Assembly (NCBI RefSeq): GCF_002854065.1
Contig: NZ_CP024147.1
Length of the DNA: 64,000 nucleotides
Direction: 5' to 3' (one strand)
DNA from: Escherichia coli
GTDB taxonomy: Bacteria; Pseudomonadota; Gammaproteobacteria; Enterobacterales; Enterobacteriaceae
The notes under the pieces were generated by a model, which did no database searches, was not told the origin of the DNA, and was given only the letters and a program-made list of their open reading frames with translations. This document shows positions 8,360-38,903 of the stretch, piece after piece (position 1 is the stretch's first letter; each line of letters begins with the position of its first letter). The position numbers and the translations under genes are program-made.

Positions 8360-8444
8360 GCCGAAGTGGCGAAATCGGTAGACGCAGTTGATTCAAAATC
8401 AACCGTAGAAATACGTGCCGGTTCGAGTCCGGCCTTCGGCACCA
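8360..8444 (+). tRNA. leuX: tRNA-Leu (anticodon CAA)
   Basis: Sequence GCCGAAGTGGCGAAATCGGTAGACGCAGTTGATTCAAAATCAACCGTAGAAATACGTGCCGGTTCGAGTCCGGCCTTCGGCACCA read directly; anticodon loop TTCAAAA; long variable arm. Confidence 0.9.
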
Positions 8445-8642: not shown

Positions 8643-9899
8643 ATGGCTCTGAGTGATGTGAAGGTTCGTTCGGCTAAGCCTGAAGCAAAAGCCTATAAAC
8701 TTACTGATGGTGACGGTTTGGTTTTGCTGGTTCACCCGAATGGCTCAAAATACTGGCGGCTGCGTTATCGTTTTGGCGGTAAGGAGAAGATGCTGGCGCT
8801 TGGGAAATACCCTGAAGTGTCGCTGGCGGATGCCCGGGCACGCCGGGATGAAGCTCGTAAGCTGTTAGCTAATGGCGTCGATCCCAGTGAGAACAAGAAA
8901 GCCGTTAAGGTAGAGCAGGAGCAAGAGGCGATAACGTTTGAATTGGTTGCCAGAGACTGGCACGCCAGCAATCAGAAGTGGTCTGCATCGCATAGAGCTC
9001 GAGTATTGAAAAGCCTCGAAGATAATCTCTTTGCTGCTATCGGTAAGCGGAACATTGCAGAACTGAAAACGCGAGACCTACTTGTACCCATCAAAGCGGT
9101 GGAATCATCCGGGCGACTCGAAGTCGCCGCCCGTTTACAGCAGCGAACTACTGCGATTATGCGCTTTGCCGTTCAGAGCGGCTTAATCGACTATAACCCC
9201 GCACAAGAGATTGCCGGTGCGGTAGCTACGGCGAAAAGACAACATCGTGCTGCTCTGGAACTTAATCGCATTCCTGAATTACTTCACCGCATTGATCACT
9301 ATTCTGGCAGGCCGTTAACTCGACTGGCGGTTGAACTCACTTTGTTGGTTTTCATCCGTTCAAGCGAGCTGCGTTTTGCTCGCTGGTCAGAAGTGGATTT
9401 TGATACTGCCATGTGGACGATTCCAGGGGAGCGTGAACCGCTGGAAGGCGTTAAACATTCTCAGCGTGGTTCAAAGATGCGGACTCCCCATCTTGTTCCT
9501 TTGTCGCGGCAGGCTCTGGCTATTTTGGAAAAGATCAAAAGCATGAATGGGAGCCGTGACCTGATCTTCGTAGGAGATCACGATCCGCGTAAGCCAATGA
9601 GTGAGAATACGCTTAATAAGGCCTTGCGAGTAATGGGCTATGACACGAAAACGGAAGTGTGTGGGCATGGTTTCAGGACGATGGCGTGTAGCTCATTGAT
9701 TGAATCGGGTTTGTGGTCGAGAGATGCGGTGGAAAGGCAGATGAGCCATCAAGAGCGTAGCTCTGTGCGTGCGGCGTATATTCATAAGGCGGAACATTTG
9801 GGAGAACGCAGGTTGATGCTGCAGTGGTGGGCTGATTTTCTTGATGCAAATCGTGAGAAGGCGATGAGTCCATTTGATTTTGCCAAACTTAGGCGGTGA
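8643..9899 (+). CDS. P4-like tyrosine integrase (site-specific recombinase) of the leuX island
   Basis: Lies immediately 3' of the tRNA; N-terminal SAKPEAKAYKLTDGDGL...WRLRYRFGGK motif typical of P4-family integrases; C-terminal HxxR and catalytic Tyr region (HGFRTMA...AAYIH). Confidence 0.85.
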   Translation: MALSDVKVRSAKPEAKAYKLTDGDGLVLLVHPNGSKYWRLRYRFGGKEKMLALGKYPEVSLADARARRDEARKLLANGVDPSENKKAVKVEQEQEAITFELVARDWHASNQKWSASHRARVLKSLEDNLFAAIGKRNIAELKTRDLLVPIKAVESSGRLEVAARLQQRTTAIMRFAVQSGLIDYNPAQEIAGAVATAKRQHRAALELNRIPELLHRIDHYSGRPLTRLAVELTLLVFIRSSELRFARWSEVDFDTAMWTIPGEREPLEGVKHSQRGSKMRTPHLVPLSRQALAILEKIKSMNGSRDLIFVGDHDPRKPMSENTLNKALRVMGYDTKTEVCGHGFRTMACSSLIESGLWSRDAVERQMSHQERSSVRAAYIHKAEHLGERRLMLQWWADFLDANREKAMSPFDFAKLRR

Positions 9900-10229: not shown

Positions 10230-13200
10230 ATGGATGCTTTAAGGGCTACAACATCGACAAATTTCAGTTTTCTCGCTGAACATGACCCGCTGTTTCTACA
10301 AATCGCCACTGCTGCAGAAAACGCCTTCTCAGGCGATCCCAACACCACCTTGATTAAGTTGCGCCAACTAGGTGAAGCCTTAGCACAACATATTGCTGCG
10401 CTGGTCGGGATCACGTTTGATGAACCGCCCACTCAGGCTGATTTACTCTACCGCCTCAATCGCGAGCTAAAATTTGAACCCACGGTACTCGAGCTATTTC
10501 ATCTATTGCGGATAGAGGGCAACAAGGCCACTCACCAGTTCAAAACCAAGCACAAAGAGGCGCTAGATGGCTTAAAAGTGGCGCGAGCGCTAGCTATCTG
10601 GTTCCACCAATCTTTCGGCAAGCAGGGCGCGGCCTTTAAACCCGGCGCTTTTATTGCTCCTCCAGACCCGAGCAATCAGCTTAGGCAACTCCAAACGGAA
10701 ATCGATCGCCTCAAAAGTGAGCTCACTACCGCCAACATACAGCTAGATTCCAGCCAACAGCTGCAAAATTTGCTGGTGCAGGAAAAGAGTGAATATGAAG
10801 CGCTGGCGTTAGCCATGGATGATGAAACTAAGGTGTTAGCATCGCAGGCGAAAGAGCAGGAAATTGCACTCGAACAGCTTCGACAGCAATACGAAGAAAA
10901 ATTAAAAATCCTGCAAGCGCAACTGACCGAAAAAGATGAAAAGCAGGCCCGAACACAACGGCGAGAGTTTGCCCAGAAGAGCCGCCGTGCCAGCCAACAT
11001 ATCGCGTTAAATGAAGAACTCACCCGTATATTGATTGACCAAAACTTAAATGATGCGGGCTGGCTTGCTGACAGTCAGGAACTGACCTGGGCTAACGGAA
11101 CTCGCCCTGAAAAGGGGATAAACAAAGCCATTGCCGAATGGCCTACGGAGTATCAGGGTAAAAAAGGTCGCGCTGATTACGTTCTATTTTGCGGCTTAAC
11201 TCCGCTGGCCACGGTCGAAGCCAAAAAAGAAAACACCGATGTTGCGGGAAAAATTCCGCAGGCAGAACGCTACAGCAAAGGCTTCAAAATCACGTCCCCC
11301 ATGATTGGCGCATGGGAGCGGGAAGGCCGAACCATTGCATGGGCGGATGAGACTGACGGGCATTATATTATCCCGTTTGTATACTCCTGCAACGGTCGCC
11401 CCTACGTGCCACAGTTGGCTGAGTCATCAGGAACTTGGTTCCGGGACGTGCGCGAACCGTCCAACATCCGCCGTGCGCTGCAAAAGTTTCATACCCCGCA
11501 AGGCTTGCTGGATAAACTCGAACGCAGCAAAGACAGCGCCGAACAGAAGCTAAAGCAAGAAGGCTTCGCTTACCTCCGGTTACGCGATTATCAGCAAAAG
11601 GCCATTCTCGCCGTTGAAAGCACATTGGCGCAAAACATCCGCAATGCCCTTCTGGCGATGGCGACCGGCACCGGGAAAACACGCACCATTGTTGGTCTAA
11701 TGTACCGTTTTCTGAAAACTGAACGCTTCAAGCGCATCCTCTTTCTGGTTGACCGTACGGCTTTGGGCGAGCAAGCCACGGACACCTTCAAAGAAGCGCC
11801 GTTGGAGCAAAACCAGACGCTGTCTCAGATTTACAATATCGCTGAGCTCGGCGATATGGCTACACAGGCAGAAACCCGAGTACAGGTCGCGACGGTACAG
11901 GCCATGGTTAGCCGCATTTTTTCCTCGGACACACCACCGCCGGTGGATGAATTTGACTGCATCATCGTTGATGAAGCCCACCGAGGCTACACCTTAGATC
12001 AGGAAATGACTGAAGGGGAACTCTCGACCCGCGACGCCAGCCAATATCTCTCCAGCTACCGTCGGGTGCTCGATTATTTCGACGCGGTAAAAATCGGCCT
12101 TACCGCCACTCCGGCGAAACATACCAGCGATATCTTCGGCAAACCGATTTACATCTACTCCTACCGTGAAGCCGTGGCGGATGATTGGCTTATCGATCAT
12201 GAACCTCCAATCCGTTATGAAACGCTGCTGACGCAAAATGGCATCCACTTTGACAAAGGGAGCCAGGTGCATGCCATTAATATCCACACCGGAGAGGTTG
12301 AGATTGATCAGCTAGAAGACGAAGTGGATTTCAACGTTGATGCATTTAACCGTGGCGTCATCAGTGAAAACTTTAATCGGGTTATTTGCCAACAGCTCGT
12401 GAAAGAGCTCGATCCCTTTGGCGAAGAGAAAACGCTGGTTTTCTGCGTTACAGACAAACATGCCGACATGGTCAAACGCTTGCTGGATGAAGCGTTCTCT
12501 GCTGAATATGAAAACTATAATCAAGCGGCCGTCGAGAAAATCACCGGTGAAAGTGACAAAGTCAAACAGTTGATCAAACAGTATAAAAATGAACGCTATC
12601 CGAATATTGCAATCACCGTTGATTTGCTTAGCACCGGCATTGACGTGCCGAAGATTTGTAATCTGGTTTTCATGCGTCGGGTGAAGTCACGTATTTTATT
12701 TGAACAGATGATAGGCCGCGCAACACGCCGCTGTGATGACATTGGCAAAACGGTCTTCCGTATTTACGATCCAGTAGATATTTATGAGGCTCTCAGTGAC
12801 GTTAACACCATGAAACCGCTGGTCAAAGACCCCAATATCACACTTGAACAATTGGTCGGCGAGCTAACCGATACTGAACAGCTCGAAAAAGCGCTCAACA
12901 GCCCCGGTGAACATACAGGTGAAACTCAGGCTGATGTGGTGCTCAGCCAGTTAAGCCAAAAGGTGATGCGCATCCTACGTAAGGCGGAGAAACGGGCAGA
13001 AAATCGCCCAGTGGTGAAACAAAAATTGGCTGACCTCCATCAACTGTGGGGCGTTGAGCCAAAACAGCTGCATCAACATCTGCATCACTTAGGGCCGCGT
13101 CAGGCGGCAGCCTTCATCCAACAACAGCAAGGGCTAATCTGCCAGCTCAACGAGATAGCTACATTACTCGGAAGTGAATACCGGCCGATTATTTCTGAGC

Positions 13201-13754
13201 ATCATGACCAACTACAGGAACGTAACCAGAGCTACGGTAGCCATCAGCGGCCAGAAGATTACCTGGAAAGCTTTGCGGATTTTATTCAGCAGCAGCTTAA
13301 CCAATCCACTGCGCTGGCCGTGGTTGTCAACAAACCCCGCGACCTCACTCGTGAACAGCTTAAAGAGATCCGCTTATTATTAGACGGTGCGGGCTATTCC
13401 GAAGCTAATCTACAAACCGCCGTGCGTAATCAAACCAATCAGGATATCGCCGCCAGCATTGTCGGCCACATTCGCCGTGCTGCACTAGGGGAGCCTCTTG
13501 TGCCTTTTGCACAGCGCGTATCACAGGCAATGATCAACATTTATAACAGCCGCGCATGGACAACCCAGCAACGAAAATGGCTGGATCGTCTGGCAAAACA
13601 GCTGGTTCATGAAGTGATCATTGATCACCAATTTATTAACAATAGTTTTGCTGATGATGGCGGCGTAAAACAGCTCAATAAGATATTGGTAGACCAACTG
13701 GACAGCGTGCTGGATGAACTTAACGGTGCGATATGGCCACAACAAAGCGCCTGA
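10230..13754 (+). CDS. hsdR: Type I restriction enzyme R subunit (EcoKI family, type IA)
   Basis: 1174 aa; PD-(D/E)xK nuclease motif (RADYVLF...VEAKK), SF2 helicase motifs (LAMATGTGKTRT, DCIIVDEAHRGY, QMIGRATRR); collinear with remembered EcoKI HsdR. Confidence 0.9.
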   Translation: MDALRATTSTNFSFLAEHDPLFLQIATAAENAFSGDPNTTLIKLRQLGEALAQHIAALVGITFDEPPTQADLLYRLNRELKFEPTVLELFHLLRIEGNKATHQFKTKHKEALDGLKVARALAIWFHQSFGKQGAAFKPGAFIAPPDPSNQLRQLQTEIDRLKSELTTANIQLDSSQQLQNLLVQEKSEYEALALAMDDETKVLASQAKEQEIALEQLRQQYEEKLKILQAQLTEKDEKQARTQRREFAQKSRRASQHIALNEELTRILIDQNLNDAGWLADSQELTWANGTRPEKGINKAIAEWPTEYQGKKGRADYVLFCGLTPLATVEAKKENTDVAGKIPQAERYSKGFKITSPMIGAWEREGRTIAWADETDGHYIIPFVYSCNGRPYVPQLAESSGTWFRDVREPSNIRRALQKFHTPQGLLDKLERSKDSAEQKLKQEGFAYLRLRDYQQKAILAVESTLAQNIRNALLAMATGTGKTRTIVGLMYRFLKTERFKRILFLVDRTALGEQATDTFKEAPLEQNQTLSQIYNIAELGDMATQAETRVQVATVQAMVSRIFSSDTPPPVDEFDCIIVDEAHRGYTLDQEMTEGELSTRDASQYLSSYRRVLDYFDAVKIGLTATPAKHTSDIFGKPIYIYSYREAVADDWLIDHEPPIRYETLLTQNGIHFDKGSQVHAINIHTGEVEIDQLEDEVDFNVDAFNRGVISENFNRVICQQLVKELDPFGEEKTLVFCVTDKHADMVKRLLDEAFSAEYENYNQAAVEKITGESDKVKQLIKQYKNERYPNIAITVDLLSTGIDVPKICNLVFMRRVKSRILFEQMIGRATRRCDDIGKTVFRIYDPVDIYEALSDVNTMKPLVKDPNITLEQLVGELTDTEQLEKALNSPGEHTGETQADVVLSQLSQKVMRILRKAEKRAENRPVVKQKLADLHQLWGVEPKQLHQHLHHLGPRQAAAFIQQQQGLICQLNEIATLLGSEYRPIISEHHDQLQERNQSYGSHQRPEDYLESFADFIQQQLNQSTALAVVVNKPRDLTREQLKEIRLLLDGAGYSEANLQTAVRNQTNQDIAASIVGHIRRAALGEPLVPFAQRVSQAMINIYNSRAWTTQQRKWLDRLAKQLVHEVIIDHQFINNSFADDGGVKQLNKILVDQLDSVLDELNGAIWPQQSA

Positions 13755-13833
13755 TTCTGGTAAAATTCGCTAGCGAAACACGCCTTTTTAATCGCGCTTG
13801 CGGCATATTTCGCGAGCGAATGCAGGAAAAATA

Positions 13834-15402
13834 ATGAGTAATAATAACGATATCGTACAAAAACTGTGGAACCTGTGTGATGTACTGCGTGATGACGGCA
13901 TCAACTACAGCGATTACGTCACCGAACTAGTGCTACTACTGTTTATCAAAATGGTGCATGAAAATACCGAAGCAGAATTATTAGATCAGCACACTTTACC
14001 GCAGGGCTGCCGCTGGAGCGATCTCAACAGTTTATCGGGCCTCAACTTGCTTAACCATTACAAACAAATGCTGTTGAAGCTCTCCAGCGGCAAAGACGCT
14101 GAAGGTAATTCGGTTCATGCTGACCCGCTGATTAGCGCCATTTATGACGATGCGCAGACCCGCCTGCGTGAGCCTCGTCATCTCGAACAGATGATCCGCA
14201 CCCTCGACCAAATTGACTGGTTTAGTGCTAAAAAAGACGGTCTCGGTGATCTTTATGAAGGTCTGCTGGAGAAAAACGCCGGAGAAACAAAATCTGGCGC
14301 AGGTCAATATTTTACGCCGCGGGCCTTAATTAACAGCATGGTACGCTGCATTAAGCCACAGGCTGGAGAAGTGATCCAAGATCCCGCTGCGGGCACCGCA
14401 GGGTTTTTGATTGCCGCCGATCAATACATCAAGCAACAAACTGACAACCTCTACGACCTTACTGCCAAAGCGAGAACCTTTCAAAAAAATAAAGCCTTTA
14501 TTGGTGTGGAACTGGTTCCGTCTACGCGCCGCCTGGCACTGATGAACTGCCTGCTACACGGCATCGAAGGGGATGACGAAGGCGTCGTGCATCAGGGCAA
14601 CGCGTTGGGCATGGTGGGTGCTAGCTTGCCCAAGGCCGATATCATTCTTGCTAACCCGCCGTTCGGTACGGCGAAAGGCGGTGAAGCCAGCATTACTCGT
14701 GATGACTTAACCTACCCAACTAGTAACAAACAGCTAGCGTTTTTACAGCATATCTACCGTAACTTAAAACCGGGTGGCCGTGCAGCTGTGGTGCTACCCG
14801 ACAACGTCCTGTTTGAAGCGGGTGTTGGCACCGATGTACGCCGCGACCTTATGAACAAATGTAACCTGCACACCATTTTACGTTTACCCACCGGGATTTT
14901 TTACGCCCAAGGGGTGAAAACCAACGTTTTGTTCTTCACCAAAGGCAGCGCCAACAACAAACATCAGGATGAAAATTGTACCGAAAACGTCTGGATCTAT
15001 GATCTGCGTAGTAACATGCCAAGCTTTGGCAAACGCACCCCGTTTGGTGAGCAACATTTAAAACCCTTTGAAGCGGTTTACGGCGACGATGCCAACGGTC
15101 AAAGCCCACGCAGTGAAGGGGAATGGAGTTTTAACTCCGACAAACTTGACGTGCCCGATAACGCCGAAAATCAGCACGTTGACAACCGCATGGCGACCAG
15201 CCGTTGGCGCACATTCAGCCGTGAATGGATCCGCGATGTTAAAGGTGATTCATTAGATATTGCATGGCTGAAAGATAACAACAGCGTTGATGTGACTAAC
15301 CTGCCTGAACCTAGTGTATTAGCGATTGAAGCAAAAGAAGAATTAACCACTGCTTTAGCAGAACTGGATGCTTTATTGACTTTATTAGGAGCAACTCGCT
15401 GA
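13834..15402 (+). CDS. hsdM: Type I restriction-modification N6-adenine methyltransferase subunit
   Basis: Strong collinear similarity to EcoKI HsdM (SGAGQYFTPR, DPAAGTAGFL, NPPFG motifs); start at the internal ATG 13834. Confidence 0.9.
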   Translation: MSNNNDIVQKLWNLCDVLRDDGINYSDYVTELVLLLFIKMVHENTEAELLDQHTLPQGCRWSDLNSLSGLNLLNHYKQMLLKLSSGKDAEGNSVHADPLISAIYDDAQTRLREPRHLEQMIRTLDQIDWFSAKKDGLGDLYEGLLEKNAGETKSGAGQYFTPRALINSMVRCIKPQAGEVIQDPAAGTAGFLIAADQYIKQQTDNLYDLTAKARTFQKNKAFIGVELVPSTRRLALMNCLLHGIEGDDEGVVHQGNALGMVGASLPKADIILANPPFGTAKGGEASITRDDLTYPTSNKQLAFLQHIYRNLKPGGRAAVVLPDNVLFEAGVGTDVRRDLMNKCNLHTILRLPTGIFYAQGVKTNVLFFTKGSANNKHQDENCTENVWIYDLRSNMPSFGKRTPFGEQHLKPFEAVYGDDANGQSPRSEGEWSFNSDKLDVPDNAENQHVDNRMATSRWRTFSREWIRDVKGDSLDIAWLKDNNSVDVTNLPEPSVLAIEAKEELTTALAELDALLTLLGATR

Positions 15403-16778
15403 TGAGTAAGATTATTCTACCTGAAGGGTGGTCCAATTGTACTCTTGCAGATATTGCTGAAGTTAACCCTAAAAAAATAGAGGCTGAACCTGACATAATT
15501 GCAGGCTTTGTTCCTATGTCTCATGCCCCAACAAACTATTACGGGAAATTAGAGTTTGAAGAAAAGACTTGGGGTGAAATTGGTAAATCTTACACTAACT
15601 TTAAAAATGATGATGTGATTTTTGCAAAAGTAACGCCTTGTTTTGAAAATGGTAAAGCAGCAATTGTAAAAGATATGCCAAATAATATCGGTGCAGGCAG
15701 CTCTGAATTTTATGTTCTACGCGCTCGTAATCAAGAGATACCAGCCAGTTATTTACTTGGGATTATTAAGACCAGAAAATTTATGCAGGAAGGTGCAGAA
15801 AATATGACAGGTGCTGTTGGTCTGCGCCGTGTTCCAAGGGCTTTCGTTGAAAGCTTTCCTTTGATACTTCCCCCTCTTGCAGAACATAAAATCATCGCCG
15901 ATAAACTCGATATTCTGTTAGCACAGGTCGAAAGCGCCAAAGCACGCCTTGAGCAAATACCACAAATCCTGAAGCGTTTTCGTCAAGCGGTGTTGGCATC
16001 TGCGGTGAGTGGAAAATTAATACCAAAGGATCAAAAGTCCAATGTACGATTTGATGTCTCAGTTGGTTCACTTTGTATAACTTCGTTTGATGGCCCTTTT
16101 GGGTCAAAATTAAAAACGGCTGATTATACAAATGCGGGTGTTCGTGTCGCTCGACTAGAAAATATTGGTCATTTAACATTTAATGATGAAAAAGAAACGT
16201 ATATCAGCGATACAAAATTTAATAGCCTAAAAGGAAATAAGCTCGAAAAGGATGATGTGTTATTCTCATCATTTGTAGATGAAGATGTTCGTGTATGTCT
16301 TTTTCCACATAACGATAAAATTTTTATAAACAAGGCAGATTGTTTTTGTTTAAGGATCAATCAAGAAATAGCATCACCAAAATATGTAGCTTTAACATTA
16401 GCAAGCAGAACTTCGTATGAACAAATTAAAGCACAGGTTCAAGGTGTAACACGACCTCGTATTAATTTAAAGACGTTAAGGTCTTTGTCGTTTACGTTTC
16501 CTTCTCTACAAGAACAAAACGAAATTGTTCGCCGCGTAGAACAACTCTTCGCCTATGCTGATGGCATCGAAAAGCAGGTACACAACGCCCTTGAGTGCGT
16601 CAACAACCTCACACAGTCGATTCTGGCTAAAGCATTTCGTGGGGAACTCACGGCGCAATGGCGTGCAGAAAATCCCGATTTAATTAGTGGTGAAAATAGC
16701 GCACAAGCATTACTGGTGAAAATTCAACAGCAGCGCAAAAACATAAAAAATATCAAACGCAACAAGGGTAATAATTGA
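15402..16778 (+). CDS. hsdS: Type I restriction-modification specificity subunit (two target-recognition domains)
   Basis: 458 aa; start overlaps the hsdM stop (TGATG); central and C-terminal conserved repeat regions between two variable TRDs. Confidence 0.85.
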   Translation: MSKIILPEGWSNCTLADIAEVNPKKIEAEPDIIAGFVPMSHAPTNYYGKLEFEEKTWGEIGKSYTNFKNDDVIFAKVTPCFENGKAAIVKDMPNNIGAGSSEFYVLRARNQEIPASYLLGIIKTRKFMQEGAENMTGAVGLRRVPRAFVESFPLILPPLAEHKIIADKLDILLAQVESAKARLEQIPQILKRFRQAVLASAVSGKLIPKDQKSNVRFDVSVGSLCITSFDGPFGSKLKTADYTNAGVRVARLENIGHLTFNDEKETYISDTKFNSLKGNKLEKDDVLFSSFVDEDVRVCLFPHNDKIFINKADCFCLRINQEIASPKYVALTLASRTSYEQIKAQVQGVTRPRINLKTLRSLSFTFPSLQEQNEIVRRVEQLFAYADGIEKQVHNALECVNNLTQSILAKAFRGELTAQWRAENPDLISGENSAQALLVKIQQQRKNIKNIKRNKGNN

Positions 16779-18481
16779 TGCGACTGATTTCTTTAGATTT
16801 GAGAGGCAGCTACAAAGGCTTGAAAGATCAATTCTTTGACTTCAGTTATGCCCAAGATAATATAATTGCATTGATTGGCCTTAATGGTTCTGGTAAATCT
16901 CAATTGCTTGAGTTAATCGGAGAAACTTTTGCTTATCTAGAGCGATGGCAACGTGCAGAGTTCAAAAATAAAACATCGTTAGGTTTTAGCGTCGCGGTAC
17001 ACTATCAATGGGATCTTAGAAATGATAGTGCTGTTATATCTTACCCAGACGAGCTCATGAATCATGGTGAGAGCATTGAGCTAAAGGTAACTATTGAGCT
17101 TGACGGCGATGTGTTTTTAAATGTTCGTGGTACTTATGAGTGGCATGTAATACAGCTTGGTGAGCGCCATTTCCCCATCCCTCTCGTGGTTGGTTATGCT
17201 TCGGGGCTAAACGAAAATTTACAGCGAAGTTTTATGAAAAATGCTGTGCAATATTTTGAAGTCCGTCGAATTAGTAGCCAGCGTCTAAAAATGCTATCAC
17301 GAGAAATTAATGATGAACAGTTGGCTGAAATCAATAAGAAGTATCTTAAAAAATACCCACACATATTTGATCCTTTATCAGAAGGTGATTTTTTTCCAAA
17401 TTATCACCTGAATTTGAGAGAAGTGAATCCTGCCCCTAGCAATTTTAACTATCTTGATTACGATAATATTGGGCTCTTAATTTTATCGCTATCGATTCTT
17501 CCGGCTGGGACAGTATTTCAACTATTAGATGAAATAACATATAAACATCCTGTCAAAGCTGTACTTCATTACGACTTTCGTTCTGGCATCATAGAAGATG
17601 ATGCCATTCGTGATGTGAAAATGTTGATCCGTATAGCAGGCTCCGATCAAGTAAGGCCAACAGGAGGCCGAACTACAGATAACCAGTATGAACTTTATGA
17701 GTTAGAATATCTGTCTGGAGAAATCACTCTCGAATTAAGTGATGAGGCTGTTTTAAACCGACTTCGTGAAGATAACTACTTTGATTCTTTCGCATTATTT
17801 AAAAGACTTAATAATATTCAACAGCTTGGCATAAAGAACTGGGATCGTACATCTCGTTTGAAATTGATGAAAGATGATTTTATAGGTACGGTAAAAAAAC
17901 CGCTTCAGTCAAGGTTACCTTTATCTGTTGTTGAGTTATTAATGGCTAATGAACAGGGCGATACCGTGAAGTTTGATGATTTATCTGACGGTGAAGCTCA
18001 ATTGATTCAGGTTGTTGCCGCAACAAGGATATTCAGTCAGGTTCAAGCGCTATTTCTTTTTGATGAGCCAGAAACACACCTTAATCCGTCTTGGCGTACC
18101 TATTTTCATCAGCGTTTAACTGAAGCATTTACACCTGGAAATGAGAGGAAAGGTCAATCGCAATTCTTTCTATCTACTCACTCACCATTCATGATTTCCT
18201 CGCTCAAACGCGAGAATGTATTTTTCTTCGAGCGTAGTGATATGGGTTGTATCAGTATGGAACCGGTGTCCAGCCAGACTTATGGCACATCATTTGATGT
18301 CTTGGTTAAGAACCACTACGGTCTGCGTTCCCTTATTTCACAGACAGTGGTGAAGGATGTTAAAAATCGATTACCAGAAGATAATAATCCTGAAGCAGTT
18401 ATAGCTGCGCGACTCTGGATTGAGGAAAATCTGGGAGAATCAATGGAAAAGGCTTATCTGCTAAGGAAACTAGATAGCTAA
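16778..18481 (+). CDS. ABC-type (AAA_15/AAA_21-like) ATPase, PtuA-like, coupled to hsdS
   Basis: Walker A GLNGSGKSQ near the N-terminus, Walker B LFLFDEPETHLNP and H-loop LSTHSPF near the C-terminus, with a long insert between; ATG overlaps the hsdS stop (TGATG). Confidence 0.6.
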   Translation: MRLISLDLRGSYKGLKDQFFDFSYAQDNIIALIGLNGSGKSQLLELIGETFAYLERWQRAEFKNKTSLGFSVAVHYQWDLRNDSAVISYPDELMNHGESIELKVTIELDGDVFLNVRGTYEWHVIQLGERHFPIPLVVGYASGLNENLQRSFMKNAVQYFEVRRISSQRLKMLSREINDEQLAEINKKYLKKYPHIFDPLSEGDFFPNYHLNLREVNPAPSNFNYLDYDNIGLLILSLSILPAGTVFQLLDEITYKHPVKAVLHYDFRSGIIEDDAIRDVKMLIRIAGSDQVRPTGGRTTDNQYELYELEYLSGEITLELSDEAVLNRLREDNYFDSFALFKRLNNIQQLGIKNWDRTSRLKLMKDDFIGTVKKPLQSRLPLSVVELLMANEQGDTVKFDDLSDGEAQLIQVVAATRIFSQVQALFLFDEPETHLNPSWRTYFHQRLTEAFTPGNERKGQSQFFLSTHSPFMISSLKRENVFFFERSDMGCISMEPVSSQTYGTSFDVLVKNHYGLRSLISQTVVKDVKNRLPEDNNPEAVIAARLWIEENLGESMEKAYLLRKLDS

Positions 18482-19647
18482 TGTTATTTTCACTTAATCC
18501 ACAGACGCCTCAATGTTCGGTATTTGCATTTCTTAATGCTGAATTTCTTCATTTTTTGCAAGCTACTATTAATGCTGATGTATTCTCAGAAAACTTATTC
18601 CGCACTTTTCCTGAGATGATTGAAGATACAGAAGTACTTGTCCCTAGTGTATGTTGGAGTAATGAGCCCACAAGAGAGAAATTTCTTGGGTTATGGGAAG
18701 CGCGGCCTACGACCGTTGCGCAGCGACGGGAGTTGTCAGACCAAATAAGTCAGGCTCAGGATATTAATGTATTTTTCAACAATACCCAAGCTGTATTGCC
18801 GCAATTAGTACCAGCCTCTTTATTCGAAGCATGTAAGGCGTTAACAACTCATTTGTTTACACGTACCAAAGATCTAGCTCAAGCAAAGTCACAATCCAAT
18901 AGTTCTATTGAAAAACATTATCAGAATTTCGTCAGAGAAAATAATAATAGCCATCTATGTCCTATTTGTGGCACTGCACTTCTCTCTCAAAATCGAGAAA
19001 GCGTAGCAGAGGAAGAACAATGGCGATCAGATTATGACCACATTCTTTGCAAAGATAAATATCCAGTTTACAGTGTCCATCCAGGAAACTTCATTCCGAC
19101 TTGCCATATTTGTAATAGTAAAGCTAAAGGGGCAAGGGACTTACTGAATACTGTTGGTCTCCAGAGACGATTAGCATTTTATCCACTTCCCCCATCACAA
19201 GAGTCATGTGAGCAATTTGTTGTGGTATCGCTTCACCTCAGTGACCGTAGAGATTTAATTGTGAATAGTTGGGAAACACCGTTGGAGTCAGCATCCATTT
19301 TATTCCCCAGAGCTCCAGCTGACATAGTAGATAAAATAGGTGTATGGAAAGAAGTTTATAAAGTACCAGAAAGAGTTGAACAGCATCTTAAGGTCAACTT
19401 TTGCGAGCGTATAGCCGCTGATCTACGACCAGTAAGCTTTGATGATTTCTGTGAGCAATTACATAGATATTCGAGACAAATGCCAGCAGACTATAGAAAA
19501 TCGGAATGGAGGTTTTGGTGGCAGAAAGTCTATGAATTCTTATCAGATCAAAATAGAGACTATTTACACGATGTGTGGATATTAATTGCCTGGAAATTAA
19601 GGTTATCAAATGATGCTGATATGGCTGATACGTTTAATCAAATTTAA
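18481..19647 (+). CDS. HNH endonuclease, PtuB-like partner of the ATPase
   Basis: HNH motif CPICG...DYDHI...NFIPTCHICNSKAKG; start overlaps the ATPase stop (TAATG). Confidence 0.6.
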   Translation: MLFSLNPQTPQCSVFAFLNAEFLHFLQATINADVFSENLFRTFPEMIEDTEVLVPSVCWSNEPTREKFLGLWEARPTTVAQRRELSDQISQAQDINVFFNNTQAVLPQLVPASLFEACKALTTHLFTRTKDLAQAKSQSNSSIEKHYQNFVRENNNSHLCPICGTALLSQNRESVAEEEQWRSDYDHILCKDKYPVYSVHPGNFIPTCHICNSKAKGARDLLNTVGLQRRLAFYPLPPSQESCEQFVVVSLHLSDRRDLIVNSWETPLESASILFPRAPADIVDKIGVWKEVYKVPERVEQHLKVNFCERIAADLRPVSFDDFCEQLHRYSRQMPADYRKSEWRFWWQKVYEFLSDQNRDYLHDVWILIAWKLRLSNDADMADTFNQI

Positions 19648-19675
19648 ATTTTACTTCAACAGGGTGAGAGTATTG

Positions 19676-20848
19676 TTACTCTCCCTTTTTAAAATACATT
19701 GTAGAAGGTGCGCTTATTACTACGCAACCATCAATGCCTTTTATCTTCAATACCCCTTCCTTGAATTTAACATGTTCTTGTGTTGCTCGAGTGCAGTCCC
19801 ACAGGAAGCTGATGATATACGAATCCTTATATTTTTCGTCGACACGATAAAGTGACGCATCTTCTGCAATTTCTCCTATTAGTGCAGGAAACGATTTTTT
19901 TGTATCTTTTCGGTATTTTACTTCAATAATTGTGTGCAGTGATGGCAGATAAAGGTCTATGCGGGGGTTTTTTTGTCCGACAGGCTGAAGATTCACCTCA
20001 TCTGCAATATCGTTGAATATTGGCGCAAGTAGGATATAAAGCAGATTCTGAACATGATATTCATTTTCAACTTGCCACTTTACGGGCTCTGCGCCTCTGG
20101 TTCGACCTGAGTCCTCCCATGTCCATCGTTTTAACCCTGCAGGGATATGTTCCAGAAATCCTAGCAGGTCATCCAGTGTCCATCCAGACGGTGGAGCAAT
20201 GGCAATTTCCTGATTAATTTGATTAAAAACGTAAAGCATTACACACAAGAGAGTAACTGAAGGATTTTCTGTAGCTTGTGCTTGAAATTCGCTCATGAAA
20301 CGTCCGACAAGAGAAAGTCGGTTCTGATGACTATTGATCTTCAATAACTTTCGATAATGAAGGAAGAGTGGTATGCAGGCACTACTAAAGGAGGCTGATT
20401 CGCTGTTACCGACATATGCCGCGATATCTTTCTCGAAGATACTTAGATGGTTGCTTTCAATTTGCTGAGCCAGAAACCCTGAAATCCACTTTTCGAACTC
20501 GTGATTTATGCTCTCATCTTGCATCTGTGCCGTTAGCCATTTCACTGCCATTACACCGAACATATCCGATACCCAAGGTCTCGGTGTTGAATCAATCTTG
20601 GGAGCTTGTCCGAGCAGGCGAGAGACATCCTGGACCGAGACAGTTTCATCTAGAATACCTAAACCTGAAATTGCACAGCGTTGGTATAAAGATAGGTCCG
20701 CAAAGCTAAAATTCGTAATGCAGCTTTTATCTCCTTCCAGGAGACTAAAAAAGCAGGACTTAAATGGATCAATGTGAGCGGATTCGATCACCTTACTGTG
20801 AAAATAGTCGCGTAGCTGATAAACGTTTTCTTTCTCTATAGGAACCAT
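19676..20848 (-). CDS. PD-(D/E)xK-type nuclease-like protein, candidate pAgo-associated effector
   Basis: 390 aa; C-terminal motif PRIDLYLPSLHTIIEVKYRK (D...ExK); start overlaps the end of the pAgo reading frame by 13 bp. Confidence 0.5.
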   Translation of the reverse strand: MVPIEKENVYQLRDYFHSKVIESAHIDPFKSCFFSLLEGDKSCITNFSFADLSLYQRCAISGLGILDETVSVQDVSRLLGQAPKIDSTPRPWVSDMFGVMAVKWLTAQMQDESINHEFEKWISGFLAQQIESNHLSIFEKDIAAYVGNSESASFSSACIPLFLHYRKLLKINSHQNRLSLVGRFMSEFQAQATENPSVTLLCVMLYVFNQINQEIAIAPPSGWTLDDLLGFLEHIPAGLKRWTWEDSGRTRGAEPVKWQVENEYHVQNLLYILLAPIFNDIADEVNLQPVGQKNPRIDLYLPSLHTIIEVKYRKDTKKSFPALIGEIAEDASLYRVDEKYKDSYIISFLWDCTRATQEHVKFKEGVLKIKGIDGCVVISAPSTMYFKKGE

Positions 20849-21271
20849 TGTGAATGCCCTATTTTTCCAATCATGACTGAGTCACTCCAGCCCGGAAGCT
20901 GATTCAACCATCCTAAATTATGGGCGATAAGATCGGAATAAGTGATGGTAACTGGCATGGGATTGGGGAAGTAACTACGCCAGGAGTGTGATGCGAAACT
21001 GTAGAGCTGAGCACTCAAATACTTAATATCTTTGAAGGTCGAGTCTTTATGAACGTTGACGATCACACCACGTGGATGACCGTCCGTTTCTTGTCGTAAT
21101 TCACGTTGGCCGATCAGGTAAACAAGCATTTCGTTTTTAGAAAGCTTAAACGTATTTCCGCGATGTGTCGCCAGGCGTCCTAGACTGGCCCCCTGAATCT
21201 CCAGACAACCAATATCACTTAAATAAGTGATAGTCTTAATACTAGTTTTTAGACTAGTCATTGGAGAACAG

Positions 21272-21637
21272 ATGATTGATGTCTTAGGGCCGGAGAAACG
21301 CAGACGGCGTACCACACAGGAAAAGATCGCAATTGTTCAGCAGAGCTTTGAACCGGGGATGACGGTCTCCCTCGTTGCCCGGCAACATGGTGTAGCAGCC
21401 AGCCAGTTATTTCTCTGGCGTAAGCAATACCAGGAAGGAAGTCTTACTGCTGTCGCCGCCGGAGAACAGGTTGTTCCTGCCTCTGAACTTGCTGCCGCCA
21501 TGAAGCAGATTAAAGAACTCCAGCGCCTGCTCGGCAAGAAAACGATGGAAAATGAACTCCTCAAAGAAGCCGTTGAATATGGACGGGCAAAAAAGTGGAT
21601 AGCGCACGCGCCCTTATTGCCCGGGGATGGGGAGTAA
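21272..21637 (+). CDS. insC: IS2 transposase OrfA (InsC)
   Basis: [33 protein letters not shown]... matches IS2 InsC. Confidence 0.9.
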
Positions 21638-22500
21638 GCTTAGTCAGCCGTTGTCTCCGGGTGTCGCGTGCGCAGTTGCACGTCATTCTCAGACGAACCG
21701 ATGACTGGATGGATGGCCGCCGCAGTCGTCACACTGATGATACGGATGTGCTTCTCCGTATACACCATGTTATCGGAGAGCTGCCCACGTATGGTTATCG
21801 TCGGGTATGGGCGCTGCTTCGCAGACAGGCAGAACTTGATGGTATGCCTGCGATCAATGCCAAACGTGTTTACCGGATCATGCGCCAGAATGCGCTGTTG
21901 CTTGAGCGAAAACCTGCTGTACCGCCATCGAAACGGGCACATACAGGCAGAGTGGCCGTGAAAGAAAGCAATCAGCGATGGTGCTCTGACGGGTTCGAGT
22001 TCTGCTGTGATAACGGAGAGAGACTGCGTGTCACGTTCGCGCTGGACTGCTGTGATCGTGAGGCACTGCACTGGGCGGTCACTACCGGCGGCTTCAACAG
22101 TGAAACAGTACAGGACGTCATGCTGGGAGCGGTGGAACGCCGCTTCGGCAACGATCTTCCGTCGTCTCCAGTGGAGTGGCTGACGGATAATGGTTCATGC
22201 TACCGGGCTAATGAAACACGCCAGTTCGCCCGGATGTTGGGACTTGAACCGAAGAACACGGCGGTGCGGAGTCCGGAGAGTAACGGAATAGCAGAGAGCT
22301 TCGTGAAAACGATAAAGCGTGACTACATCAGTATCATGCCCAAACCAGACGGGTTAACGGCAGCAAAGAACCTTGCAGAGGCGTTCGAGCATTATAACGA
22401 ATGGCATCCGCATAGTGCGCTGGGTTATCGCTCGCCACGGGAATATCTGCGGCAGCGGGCTTGTAATGGGTTAAGTGATAACAGATGTCTGGAAATATAG
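21595..22500 (+). CDS. insD: IS2 transposase OrfB (InsD, DDE integrase domain)
   Basis: 301 aa ORF overlapping insC in the -1 frame; DDE transposase. Confidence 0.9.
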
Positions 22501-24987
22501 GGGCAAATCCACGTCCTTTCGACATAGTCGCCGTTGAAGAGTCGAACATGTGGAGTCCGTGATTCTCTGAGATTTTTACGAAGGCATACTCGATCTGATA
22601 ATCTCTATACTTGTCGATTACCGCACGGACTGCCTGAATCTCTTCCTTATTGAACTTTTTGACTTGTACATGGAAAATTAAGCGAATCGTATCGCCTTTC
22701 TGCCAGTTCATTCGCCTTTGTATTTTTTCTATATTCTCGGCCAGAACAGAGGTTAGAGCGTCGCAGTAAGCTTCCGGTACAACGGCTTTGGACGTACTCG
22801 AGACAATGTAACTACCGTCTCCCGAAAATACGGTGGTGATTCCCATAATGCGCTGATTATGGGCACCACGCTCTTGGACTATATTTGCACTGCCAATACC
22901 GATCACGAGTTCATGGGATAGTGTTGGCGATGATTTGAGTAGCCACGGGACTCCACCCATCTTCGCATAGCAGGCCAGTGACATGTTATTAAGCGAGTAG
23001 CCGAGTGAATAATCAGACTGCGTTAGCAGCTCTATTGTGAAATCCTGTACAGGAACTTGGTGCAAGTAAAATAGGCTTTTACCAAGATAGTAAGGATTAT
23101 CAGCAACTTTGAGTTTTTTAAATGACTGCCGCACCTGTACGAGGGCCAGATCCCAACGTCCTCCTTCATCAGCTTTTTTGCGTATTGCAGCTTCGATGGC
23201 ATTTTTGTATGCATCGACGCTGTCTGTGGATGTTTCGAACACTTCAACACGACTGGTTCCAAGTGCAAATTTACCCTCAAGGCCATTTCTGAAATATTTG
23301 CTATTAGCAATGCCTTTCAGAAGCTTACGGACGAACTGCTCGACTCGCCCTTTGTCATGTTGGGCGCAGATCACGCAGATTGATGGATCGTTCCTATCGA
23401 AGGTACGCTTTGTATAGGGGCCATTTTGTGTAAGACCCTTCTCAGTCCAATCTGCTTCACCGTTATCGTTGAAGACGAACACCGGCTTTTGCATCTGTGC
23501 ACAATCTTTTTGAATATCGGATGGATCCTCAATTTCGATACGCGTTCCATCGAGCAGCGAGATGTTTGTCGCTTGGATATACTTCTTAAGGGCGTCGATG
23601 CGGTCTTTTTTATTCTCGCCTCCGTTGAAAATGGAAACGGACTGCCGAATATGTTCGACAATGGAGTCTTTCTTCGTACCATGCGTATGAAGGATGTAGT
23701 CGTCAAAATTAGCTCGACTAGCTTCGAGATAAACGTCTTTAGCCTCAGCATGAACTGCTTGGCCGTCGGGACGAATGACACTCAGAGTTCTCCCTTCGTG
23801 GCAGCTTTCTACAAACCCTAAAAGTTTTCTAAATCCGTCGTCCTGCTCGGTGACGACGTAGCGACCAATAACATTGAATCCGGTTTTTAGGAAAAACAGG
23901 CAGTTCTCTTTTACTACACGACGTGTTGAGCAATCAATTATAAGACACGGCTGACCTTGGACAGTACGAGTGTCGATTGAATACTTGGCACAAATTTTTA
24001 AGGGATAAGCCTCACCAAGAATTGAGGCTAAAAGATTGTCTTTTGGTTTGGCACTTACCACCTCGATAGGATTGAAGCCGCAAGGAGTTCGACCCAATCC
24101 AGCGAAGTGCTTGAGCAGACCATCTTTAACCAGAGAGCAAAAGGTTCCCAAATTATCCTTTAGTTGCAGTGTCTGCGGTGTACCAGGTTTGGGGAACGTA
24201 CCATCACTCGAAAAAATCTGAATATTGTCACCCTGACGCCGGAAGACGTGCGTCACTTTATGGGAGGAGCGGAGGCTATCTAGAGTCGTCTTGTCGTAGG
24301 GGATCTGGACAAATTTCAACTCCAATTCAGGGATTTTCAGTGGAAACGCATTCAGGACAATCGGCAAGACCCACCCCTTTTGTGTTAGTGAAAAATCCAA
24401 CATACTGCGTCTCGATAATTATTCCCAGTCAGGGATGTGCTGGCACCTGACTGGCGCTCGCTGTGGGTTCCCTCCATCCGACTCTGGAAATAACTGTTTC
24501 AACAATTAATTTTCCTACACTGTAGCGTAAATTTTCTTAAGGCTCCCAAAGCGATTATTTAACTCTTTAAACTAATCTAATGTAAAGACTAGGGAAATGA
24601 TACGAGTGTAGTCTATGTCTTCGCTGTGATGAGGATCTATTCTTCGGTGTACATAGGGGTACTTAAGTTCCGATATAACACTCAACCAGCCTAAATTACA
24701 TCTGCAGGATCTCATGATTAAAATGATCTATGTGGTAGGTCATTAAATGGAGTAACCGGTCTCTCATAGGCAGGCGTAAGCCACCCCTGAGGGGCAGACA
24801 GATGCCATGCAGTTGAATGGTTTAAAGGGTTTGAGAGGGTGATAGTGCTGCGGTTGTCACACTATAGAGTTCTGGCGTAAAAACAGTCAGGCATCTCGGC
24901 ATTTATCAACTCGTCCAACGCTCCTCTGAAATTTGCGGGATCGGTTTAGTTTCAGGTGGGGGCGCTGAGGCCCCCGATTTATCGTAC

Positions 24988-37085: not shown

Positions 37086-38903
37086 CTACCTTAAACCTGC
37101 CCCTCTCATTCGCTCCTCCAGTTCATCCAGAAATGGGGAACGCCCTAGACGCATAGGGCCGTAGCGACCATCAACAAAACCGGAATACAGCATATGCACC
37201 TCGTCCCGTGCGCGGGTCAGCCCCACATAGAAAAGACGTCGGCTTTCACGCAGCTTCTCTGGCGTCTCATTACGCCACGGCAAATTCCCCAGATCTAAGC
37301 CGACCATGATAACCACGTCATATTCGCAACCTTTGGCTGAGTGAAGTGTCAGCAAATTGAGGTGCTCAGGTGAACCGTCACGACCACCTAGGCTCGTGAT
37401 ATCCAACATCGCTAACGCACCGCCTTCGGCAAGTGCTGCAGTCATGCGATCTAGTTGCTCAGCCTGATCAGAAAGCGTTGGTTCAGTTGCCAGCAGGGAA
37501 TCAACGAGACCGTTGCGCAACGACGCGACAAAATCGGATGCAGAATGTTGGTCGGCACGAAGTGCCCAAAGTAGCCTGGTTAACTCCTGCCCCTTACTCC
37601 GGGCGCATGCATCATCCAGCCTTGCCCGATGAAATGCCAGATAACGGTCTATAAGTCCGCGCAGTTGAGGGCGCCCGATACGCCAACCGCCAGCACACCA
37701 TGCTGCGCAATCCTCCACCCAGCTCGTCAAGGCAACTTTGCGATAAGGTGCTGCGGTATCCACACGAATGTAATCAAAACCGCTAGCTGTCACCGCATCG
37801 GCCACAACATCGCCGGCACGGTAGTCCTTGTACAGAATGGCGATATCACCCAGTGTTCGGCCCGGCTTAGCAGCCAACGCAGCAGGAATAATCTGCTCGA
37901 CAGCATAGACAGCCTGATCCCCCAAGCCATCCGGACACAGCTGGAACGCAATGGTTGTCTGGCGGTTTGGGTCGTTTGCGCGATAACCACGAACCTCACC
38001 CAACACCATCTCCGATGCATTCACGATGTCCGCTCCTGATCTATAGTTCAACTGGAGCCGGACTGTTTCAACGTCTCTCCTGCCTGCCAGTTCTAGTAGT
38101 AACGCACCATCGGCACCAGTGAAACCGTAAATAGATTGGTCTGCATCACCCACTGCAAATAAGCGTACGCCTCCCTCGAAAGCCAGACGTTTGACCATAC
38201 GATGGAGTGCCACGCCCAAATCTTGATATTCATCTACCGCAAGGATCGGAAATTTCGCCTGTACTAGGGGCAGAACCCAATCATGCTCAATTATCAGACG
38301 CTGACCAAATATCACCATATCGTCGTAGTCTATCAGCCCTTGCTGCCGCAATGCAGCTTCGTAGGCCTCGGCCCATGCAGCGAGTTCCTCCTCTGTACGC
38401 CAGGCAACGCTGTTGCGATTCAACACCGAACGGCGATGCCGTCCGAGATCAATAGCCTTATAGGGATGGTTTGCGCCAAAGAGACGGTCACCAGATTGTC
38501 GAAGTAACCGTTCGCTCTCGCGCTGAGACGCTACTGACAGCGGAAATGGGATTGGCAGATCGGCCAGTCGCCCATAGGGCATCAACAGATGGCGCAAGCA
38601 GAACCCATGAACGGTTCCAATAAAGAGATTCGGTGCCTCTCTAAGCCCCAGCGCTTCGAGACGACGGGTTAGCTCGCGTGCGCATTCTTGGCTATATGTG
38701 ATACATGCCGCACCACGTGGAGCTTGAACATCCTCAGCTAGGATTCGTGCCAGCTTCAGCACAAGCGTCTTTGTCTTACCACTCCCCGGGCCCGCGAGCA
38801 CCACGCAGTGTCCCTGGGAGTGATACGCGGATAACTGGCCCGGATTCCCGGCCAGCTCGGCAGCCTGAGCTAAGTAGGCTGCACTGACACTACGTGACGG
38901 CAT
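37086..38903 (-). CDS. gajB: UvrD/PcrA-family SF1 helicase, GajB-like
   Basis: Motifs VLAGPGSGKTKTL (Walker A), ILAVDEYQDLG (motif II), AVGDADQSIYGFTGA (motif III); start set at the ATG overlapping the upstream gene by 14 bp. Confidence 0.7.
   Translation of the reverse strand: MPSRSVSAAYLAQAAELAGNPGQLSAYHSQGHCVVLAGPGSGKTKTLVLKLARILAEDVQAPRGAACITYSQECARELTRRLEALGLREAPNLFIGTVHGFCLRHLLMPYGRLADLPIPFPLSVASQRESERLLRQSGDRLFGANHPYKAIDLGRHRRSVLNRNSVAWRTEEELAAWAEAYEAALRQQGLIDYDDMVIFGQRLIIEHDWVLPLVQAKFPILAVDEYQDLGVALHRMVKRLAFEGGVRLFAVGDADQSIYGFTGADGALLLELAGRRDVETVRLQLNYRSGADIVNASEMVLGEVRGYRANDPNRQTTIAFQLCPDGLGDQAVYAVEQIIPAALAAKPGRTLGDIAILYKDYRAGDVVADAVTASGFDYIRVDTAAPYRKVALTSWVEDCAAWCAGGWRIGRPQLRGLIDRYLAFHRARLDDACARSKGQELTRLLWALRADQHSASDFVASLRNGLVDSLLATEPTLSDQAEQLDRMTAALAEGGALAMLDITSLGGRDGSPEHLNLLTLHSAKGCEYDVVIMVGLDLGNLPWRNETPEKLRESRRLFYVGLTRARDEVHMLYSGFVDGRYGPMRLGRSPFLDELEERMRGAGLR

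Follow-up and report, generated by a model that had tools for sequence, protein, structure and literature searches.

What are an ATPase gene and an HNH nuclease gene doing at the end of a type I restriction-modification (RM) operon? The question is raised by a 64,000-nucleotide stretch of Escherichia coli DNA (contig NZ_CP024147.1, assembly GCF_002854065.1; hereafter the window), in which hsdR, hsdM, hsdS, the ATPase gene and the gene for its HNH partner follow one another on one strand. The last two, called the pair below, encode a PtuA-like ABC ATPase of 567 amino acids (16778..18481, plus strand), a peripheral member of the TIGR04435 superfamily, and a long, predicted PtuB-like HNH nuclease of 388 amino acids (18481..19647, plus strand). 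We show that the pair is exclusively and anciently linked to hsdS. Judged with the help of a predicted structure, it is Septu-like in architecture and fold, yet it fails the curated sequence definitions of PtuA and PtuB. The locus is a real, RM-dedicated variant and a solid, testable lead on RM-coupled abortive defence, and the position directly behind hsdS suggests that the pair works with the RM system or guards it.

Linkage of the pair to hsdS

Related loci were gathered by exact-protein look-ups, by a partner-peptide scan of 100,044 species genomes and by an ATPase-pattern scan of metagenomes, and none of these methods selected for an RM context. The loci were then annotated with tblastn and purpose-built hidden Markov models, those with enough upstream sequence to judge being counted as informative. 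In all 39 informative long-partner loci, drawn from genomes and metagenomes alike, hsdS precedes the pair on the same strand; it abuts or overlaps the ATPase gene in 32 of them, and in two more the spacer is about 0.1 kb. The association extends to Betaproteobacterial loci whose partner is 29-31% identical, and to loci with bona fide TIGR04435 ATPases (L038-L048, 351-789 bits), which carry the same long HNH partner and whose HsdR is only distantly EcoAI/PRK11448-like. The only partner copies without an ATPase gene are two deletion remnants beside or fused to hsdR or hsdM fragments. In Methylomonas montana (L004:6829-9020) a C-terminal fragment of hsdR directly adjoins the HNH partner, and in the other (L029:8879-10612) the reading frame of a truncated hsdM continues into that of the partner, starting at about residue 168. 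In both cases the module is decaying in place. More distant pairs with short PtuB-like partners of 280-310 amino acids (L056-L060) have no hsdS nearby.

Two loci have unusual layouts. On a metagenome contig (Logan SRR31724218; L038:410-3364), HsdS and a bona fide TIGR04435 ATPase form a single open reading frame of 984 amino acids. Next come genes for the long HNH partner, HsdM and an SLFN/AlbA_2 protein, and hsdR is not seen on the contig. In Rheinheimera sp. UJ63 (L016:5315-11152) the order is hsdM-hsdS-ATPase-HNH, and hsdR was not detected in the 10 kb to either side; glycosyltransferase-like genes lie upstream, and the context is incomplete.

Within the window, stop and start codons share one base at three successive junctions on the plus strand: TGATG at 15400..15404 between hsdM and hsdS (TGA 15400-15402, ATG 15402-15404), TGATG at 16776..16780 between hsdS and the ATPase gene (TGA 16776-16778, ATG 16778-16780), and TAATG at 18479..18483 between the ATPase and HNH genes (TAA 18479-18481, ATG 18481-18483). 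These overlaps had been put forward in an original prediction made from the DNA alone, and direct reading of the sequence finds the coordinates exact. Three in a row are unremarkable in themselves, because overlaps of one or four bases are common within bacterial operons; on the sequences compared, it is the conservation of the junctions, not the overlap itself, that goes beyond chance. The one-base overlap between the ATPase and HNH genes is near-universal among related loci. That between hsdS and the ATPase gene (-1 or -4) is kept in most of them, and it recurs in Gamma- and Betaproteobacterial loci with a partner only 29-31% identical. The prediction had also placed the module inside the RM operon: the pair does share strand and operon with the RM genes, but it forms the 3' end (hsdR-hsdM-hsdS-ATPase-HNH) rather than lying between them.

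The host operon is a type IB (EcoEI/EcoAI-like) RM system, both by the family of its HsdR and by the order hsdR-hsdM-hsdS. The restriction subunit, of 1174 amino acids (10230..13754, plus strand), scores 1615.7 bits against NCBIfam NF008521, the EcoEI/PRK11448 family (cut-off 729), and the Pfam domain EcoEI_R_C is present in its relatives. The N6-adenine methyltransferase subunit is encoded by hsdM (13834..15402, plus strand), whose relatives carry HsdM_N and N6_Mtase; its reading frame is open from a TTG at 13798, and the ATG at 13834, which is the RefSeq start, is more probably the true one. The specificity subunit (hsdS, 15402..16778, plus strand), of 458 amino acids, matches NCBIfam NF007278 at 8e-95. 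Just 3' of the partner's stop codon, between convergent genes, a consensus scan alone finds a terminator-like hairpin followed by a T-run (19666..19683, plus strand); promoter and terminator consensus matches in the region are not enriched over shuffled sequence.

The pair has diverged together with the RM subunits. Pairwise identities of HsdR and HsdM, compared as matrices with those of the ATPase and the partner, give correlations of r = 0.90-0.96 (Mantel p <= 0.001), L035 being the one clear module-swap outlier, and the target-recognition domains of HsdS vary freely among loci (26-59% identity). Mean pairwise identity is 0.51 for the ATPase and 0.43 for the partner, against 0.68 for HsdR and 0.76 for HsdM; the pair thus evolves faster, as would be expected if it faces phage proteins. 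Among HsdR homologues at 74-79% identity, the slot behind hsdS is found in three states. There is no pair in Buttiauxella massiliensis (HsdR 79% identical) or Dickeya chrysanthemi (75%), the long-partner pair is present in Pseudomonas psychrophila, and in Vibrio cholerae (L034) hsdR-Fic-hsdM-hsdS is directly followed by a canonical Septu (L034:16983-19393; full-length matches of 694 bits for PtuA and 335 for PtuB on the PADLOC models). Since related RM systems exist without it, the pair appears dispensable for RM. A further short-PtuB pair lies directly behind hsdS at L051:4105-6203, which together with the V. cholerae Septu indicates that Septu-type modules have come to occupy this slot more than once; the long-partner family alone is confined to it. 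Comparisons within E. coli are uninformative on whether the pair is optional, because only a single complete genome of the species has close hsdRM DNA; it is the HsdR homologues of other genera that supply the answer.

A Septu-like pair with an enlarged partner

The ATPase carries all the motifs of an ABC ATPase, and they are invariant in 25 homologues, down to 40% identity. These are a Walker A (G34-L-N-G-S-G-K-S41; 16877..16900), an ABC signature (D400-D-L-S-D-G-E406; 17975..17995), a Walker B with invariant D429 and E430 (L425-F-L-F-D-E430; 18050..18067), followed by an invariant PETHLNP D-loop region, and an H-loop (H468-S-P470; 18179..18187), all on the plus strand; Q149 is likewise invariant. 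About 360 residues separate the Walker A from the signature, in agreement with the predicted layout of an early Walker A, a late Walker B and H-loop and a long insert between them. In its motifs and large insert the protein is thus a PtuA-type ATPase, and its nearest relatives by sequence are indeed PtuA proteins (PADLOC PDLC00293, 5e-44; PDB 8ee4, 8e-6; retron PtuA, 1e-5). These matches are essentially confined to the C-terminal motif region, the best PADLOC PtuA match (149 bits) covering mostly residues 389-531; the canonical PtuA of V. cholerae, by comparison, attains 694 bits with PADLOC. On the curated PtuA model NF041760 the ATPase reaches 44.1 bits, far from the cut-off of 500.

The best curated match is TIGR04435, a 568-position model named "restriction system-associated AAA family ATPase" and classed as a "hypothetical equivalog" with no assigned function. 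The ATPase aligns with it in two collinear stretches and shares its setting beside type I restriction genes, downstream of hsdS; its 170.3 bits fall below the cut-off of 300, and the model comes without one for the partner. The original prediction had set its Septu-like reading against a housekeeping repair family. The NCBIfam profile search gave no family-level match of the ATPase to any repair protein. The repair-protein matches that do occur cover the shared ABC head only, PtuA proteins give both higher scores and longer alignments, and a housekeeping repair ATPase was rejected on these grounds.

The partner contains the predicted HNH motif, as a beta-beta-alpha-metal zinc-finger core (C160-x2-C163...D186-H187...N203...C208-x2-C211-N212-S-K-A-K216; 18958..19128, plus strand). 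C160, C163, Y185-D186-H187, N203, C208, C211 and N212-S-K-A-K216 are invariant across 33 homologues. It is also longer than PtuB, as had been noticed: at 388 amino acids against roughly 210-280, it has about 150-180 more residues, and a C-terminal extension occupies residues ~230-388. No Pfam model matches it, HNH included, and no NCBIfam model either, including the small-HNH PtuB family (TIGR02646/NF041761), to which it therefore does not belong; a full-length model for it is absent from Pfam, NCBIfam and PADLOC. Its PADLOC matches (PDC-M62B 3e-12, PDC-M01B 1e-9, PtuB 1e-7) are confined to residues ~140-225, that to PtuB spanning about 80 residues. A profile of the partner searched against PDB sequences did not find PtuB, and its hhalign comparison with V. 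cholerae PtuB was not significant (E 0.13), which indicates that the long-partner family is not merely a recent offshoot of that canonical Septu. The predicted structure (pLDDT, predicted local distance difference test, of 89) nevertheless has the fold of PtuB, as far as a model can tell; a Foldseek search with it returned no match. In Gammaproteobacteria, homologues of the partner group into 125 clusters at 90% identity, every one of them named "hypothetical". A profile search brings in 1870 representatives at E <= 1e-3, many of about 360 amino acids and aligned end to end.

The likeness to Septu (PDB 8ee4/8ee7) thus lies in a single two-gene cassette, ATPase then HNH, with a stop/start overlap here and in nearly all relatives, and in intact ABC and HNH motifs. 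In sequence, the resemblance goes no further than the C-terminal ABC motifs and an HNH core of about 80 residues, and Septu is mostly stand-alone, whereas the long-partner family always stands behind hsdS. The predicted Septu-like identity consequently holds for architecture and modelled fold, and searches against defence models give partial PADLOC matches to PtuA and PtuB; it does not hold at the level of the curated NCBIfam models, on which the ATPase falls short and the partner has no match.

Other families of comparable design were considered. PDC-M62 and PDC-M01, the partner's best PADLOC matches, are two-gene candidates with an ATPase and an HNH-like protein, found embedded in RM, BREX or DISARM; the PDC candidates come from a search by guilt-by-embedding (PADLOC; Payne et al. 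2024, bioRxiv 10.1101/2024.01.29.577857) and are themselves putative. Membership in PDC-M62 was rejected: the partner matches the HNH core only, 77 of the 328 positions of PDC-M62B (~23% of the model), and the weak match to PDC-M62A (6e-16) covers positions 391-509 of 601. PrrC (as in PrrC-EcoprrI) and RloC resemble the pair in that an ABC-type NTPase and a nuclease are encoded beside hsdS in a type I RM operon. However, they are single polypeptides, with an N-terminal NTPase and a C-terminal anticodon nuclease, and PrrC is located between hsdS and hsdR. A PrrC/RloC homologue was rejected, since here there are two separate proteins, the nuclease is of the HNH kind and there is no sequence relationship; neither a PrrC nor an RloC model is among the best PADLOC matches listed for the pair.

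A putative guard of the methyltransferase core, and its alternatives

Two precedents bear on what the pair may do. PrrC hardly ever occurs outside type I RM systems, and the RM inhibitor Stp activates it (Payne et al. 2024, bioRxiv 10.1101/2024.01.29.577857). In type I-A retrons (Ec78/Eco7, Ec83), PtuAB has been captured by a second defence module that restrains it: in retron Ec78 it is sequestered and then set loose against tRNA-Tyr and plasmid DNA (PMC12819146). Septu EcB88, for its part, cuts tRNA-Tyr in the variable loop upon T6 infection (PMC13096335). Unlike the retrons, the pair has no reverse transcriptase or msDNA (multicopy single-stranded DNA), and its candidate controller would be the type I methyltransferase core. 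By analogy, a PrrC-like "guard" mechanism is our best hypothesis, and the strict hsdS linkage is consistent with a back-up function in the style of PrrC/RloC.

Tentatively, and at somewhat less than an even chance, we favour the pair as a Septu-type effector co-opted by a type IB-like RM system, held by the HsdM2S core or monitoring it, and unleashed on perturbation. The pair would be co-transcribed with hsdM-hsdS and translationally coupled to hsdS, and would assemble with the HsdM2-HsdS methyltransferase core or be restrained by it. The trigger could be a phage that perturbs the core, with DNA-mimic or peptide anti-restriction proteins, or an infection that alters the state of the ATPase. 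The HNH nuclease would then be released and might cut host or phage nucleic acid (tRNA or DNA, as other PtuAB do), so that infection is aborted. The contact with HsdS or HsdM, the trigger, the substrate and the abortive outcome are what we infer for the pair, and docking on HsdS or on the methyltransferase core is hinted at by the translational coupling together with the HsdS::ATPase fusion of L038. A stricter version, in which a TIGR04435-type ATPase and its long HNH partner belong physically to a type I enzyme of five components, and DNA mimics such as Ocr or ArdA, by blocking or dismantling the core, unleash the PtuB-like nuclease on tRNA or DNA, seems to us a real possibility but less likely than not.

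Several observations weigh against this co-option by the methyltransferase core. The contact between HsdS/HsdM and the ATPase is itself putative. In five of the 39 loci a spacer of 0.3-2.1 kb between hsdS and the ATPase gene holds other inserted genes, which means that direct translational coupling is not required. The fusion comes from one contig in one sample (cluster size 1), no second one was found among 23 further metagenome loci, and it could be an assembly or frameshift artefact; as a hint of physical interaction it is a lead only. The co-divergence is partly confounded by host phylogeny, with Gamma- and Betaproteobacteria in separate clusters. Finally, short-PtuB pairs occur behind hsdS in L034 and L051 but are free-standing in L056-L060, so the slot may be just a favoured landing site.

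Alternatively, the pair would be an autonomous Septu-like abortive-infection system, riding the hsdMS transcription unit and its mobile island, sensing infection by itself in the manner of stand-alone PtuAB, and having neither a physical nor a regulatory link to the RM proteins. Defence systems are often nested with no known interaction (Payne et al. 2024, bioRxiv 10.1101/2024.01.29.577857), a canonical Septu or short-PtuB pair can occupy the same slot, related pairs stand free, and unrelated genes can insert between hsdS and the ATPase gene. An independent system should, however, occur elsewhere, yet all 39 informative loci are behind hsdS, and this weakens the case for autonomy; the linkage is still there where partner identity has dropped to 29-31% and in true TIGR04435 clades, one HsdS-ATPase fusion exists, and of Septu systems no more than 0.7% are reported to be embedded in Hma (same preprint). 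We regard autonomy as unlikely, if a serious contender. The dependence could also run through restriction itself, HsdM2S at unmodified sites recruiting the pair to nick or cut DNA and so supplementing or replacing HsdR. It is to hsdM-hsdS, not to hsdR, that the pair is tied, as the Rheinheimera locus and the HsdS::ATPase-HNH-hsdM order of L038 illustrate, but both of these contexts are incomplete, and nearly every locus has an intact HsdR that co-diverges. The ATPase has weak similarity to the MAD3 ATPase of MADS, a methylation-associated system with its own S subunit, and PtuAB is able to nick plasmid DNA (PMC12819146); against this, known PtuAB are infection-triggered tRNA toxins rather than site-directed nucleases (PMC13096335), and the partner does not track the specificity domains of HsdS. 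Such an auxiliary or alternative restriction effector is, in our estimate, slightly less likely than autonomy. A role outside defence, as a repair ABC ATPase of the RecF/RecN/Rad50 kind or as a regulator of restriction (restriction alleviation), is very improbable. In addition to the profile results given above, the pair is part of a defence island gained by horizontal transfer, a single complete E. coli genome carries it, and the invariant HNH catalytic residues argue for what is probably an active nuclease.

Part of this picture was already known. Defence genes nested in type I RM systems have been described (Payne et al. 2024, bioRxiv 10.1101/2024.01.29.577857), and TIGRFAMs/NCBIfam had labelled the ATPase superfamily as restriction-associated, with no function. 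Literature searches on TIGR04435 or "restriction system-associated AAA" found nothing, and searches pairing Septu with type I restriction, Ocr or anti-restriction turned up no work on such an arrangement. Relative to the literature searched, what is new is that TIGR04435-type ATPases are paired with a conserved, unannotated and enlarged nuclease of PtuB fold, that this two-gene family is Septu-like by predicted structure, and that it keeps an exclusive position downstream of hsdS over deep divergence, with one HsdS::ATPase fusion. If the pair is wired to the methyltransferase core, a long-catalogued family of "restriction system-associated" ATPases would be explained. The PrrC principle of a latent nuclease backing up disabled restriction would extend to many Proteobacteria, and Septu-type modules would appear as reusable effectors captured by different sensors, retron msDNA in one case and the type I RM complex in the other. 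Were the five-component version true, the RM complex would be a guarded immune hub. A PrrC analogue made of two proteins would then be widespread among Proteobacteria, and the takeover of Septu effectors by a different defence system, known from retrons, would have a second example. In routine annotation the partner goes without a name (it has no match in Pfam or NCBIfam, partial matches in PADLOC and the label "hypothetical protein" in RefSeq), and the alignments and context rule obtained here could serve to build a model for its detection.

The island and other embedded genes

The region is an integrase-bearing island at tRNA-Leu(CAA) (window 8360-8444 and 8643-9899), which stacks the type IB RM system and its pair, a class II prokaryotic Argonaute (pAgo) system and Gabija. 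The five-gene stretch is present in 1 of 5426 complete E. coli genomes. An identical one is found in E. coli VTB96935v (NZ_CP178662.1), where RefSeq names the products hsdR, methyltransferase, subunit S, "AAA family ATPase" and "hypothetical protein". Downstream of the pair, on the minus strand, are the intact, pAgo-associated Aga Helical-REase gene (19676-20848) and the class II pAgo gene (20836-24403). The latter is interrupted by an IS2-like element of 1330 bp (21182-22511; orfA 21227-21637, orfB 21595-22500), and it is intact, with 743 amino acids, in the otherwise near-identical RefSeq island of VTB96935v. Gabija follows at ~37086-40674, also on the minus strand (GajA 776 bits and GajB 853 bits on PADLOC models).

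Related RM loci carry genes of other kinds as well. A Fic-domain gene lies between hsdR and hsdM in two of them (L005:1905-3062, L034:12647-13726), and the space between hsdS and the ATPase gene is occupied by an SLFN/AlbA_2-like gene of 656 amino acids or by an uncharacterised pair of 234 and 171 amino acids (L002:4287-6257; L010:6766-7964). These inserts are possible further embedded defence candidates. Immediately upstream of hsdR, L034 and L035 (8752-8979 in each) have a gene for a 75-amino-acid HTH_26 protein that is absent before the hsdR of the window and is reminiscent of RptR, a repressor known from another type I RM defence island (PMC12255303).

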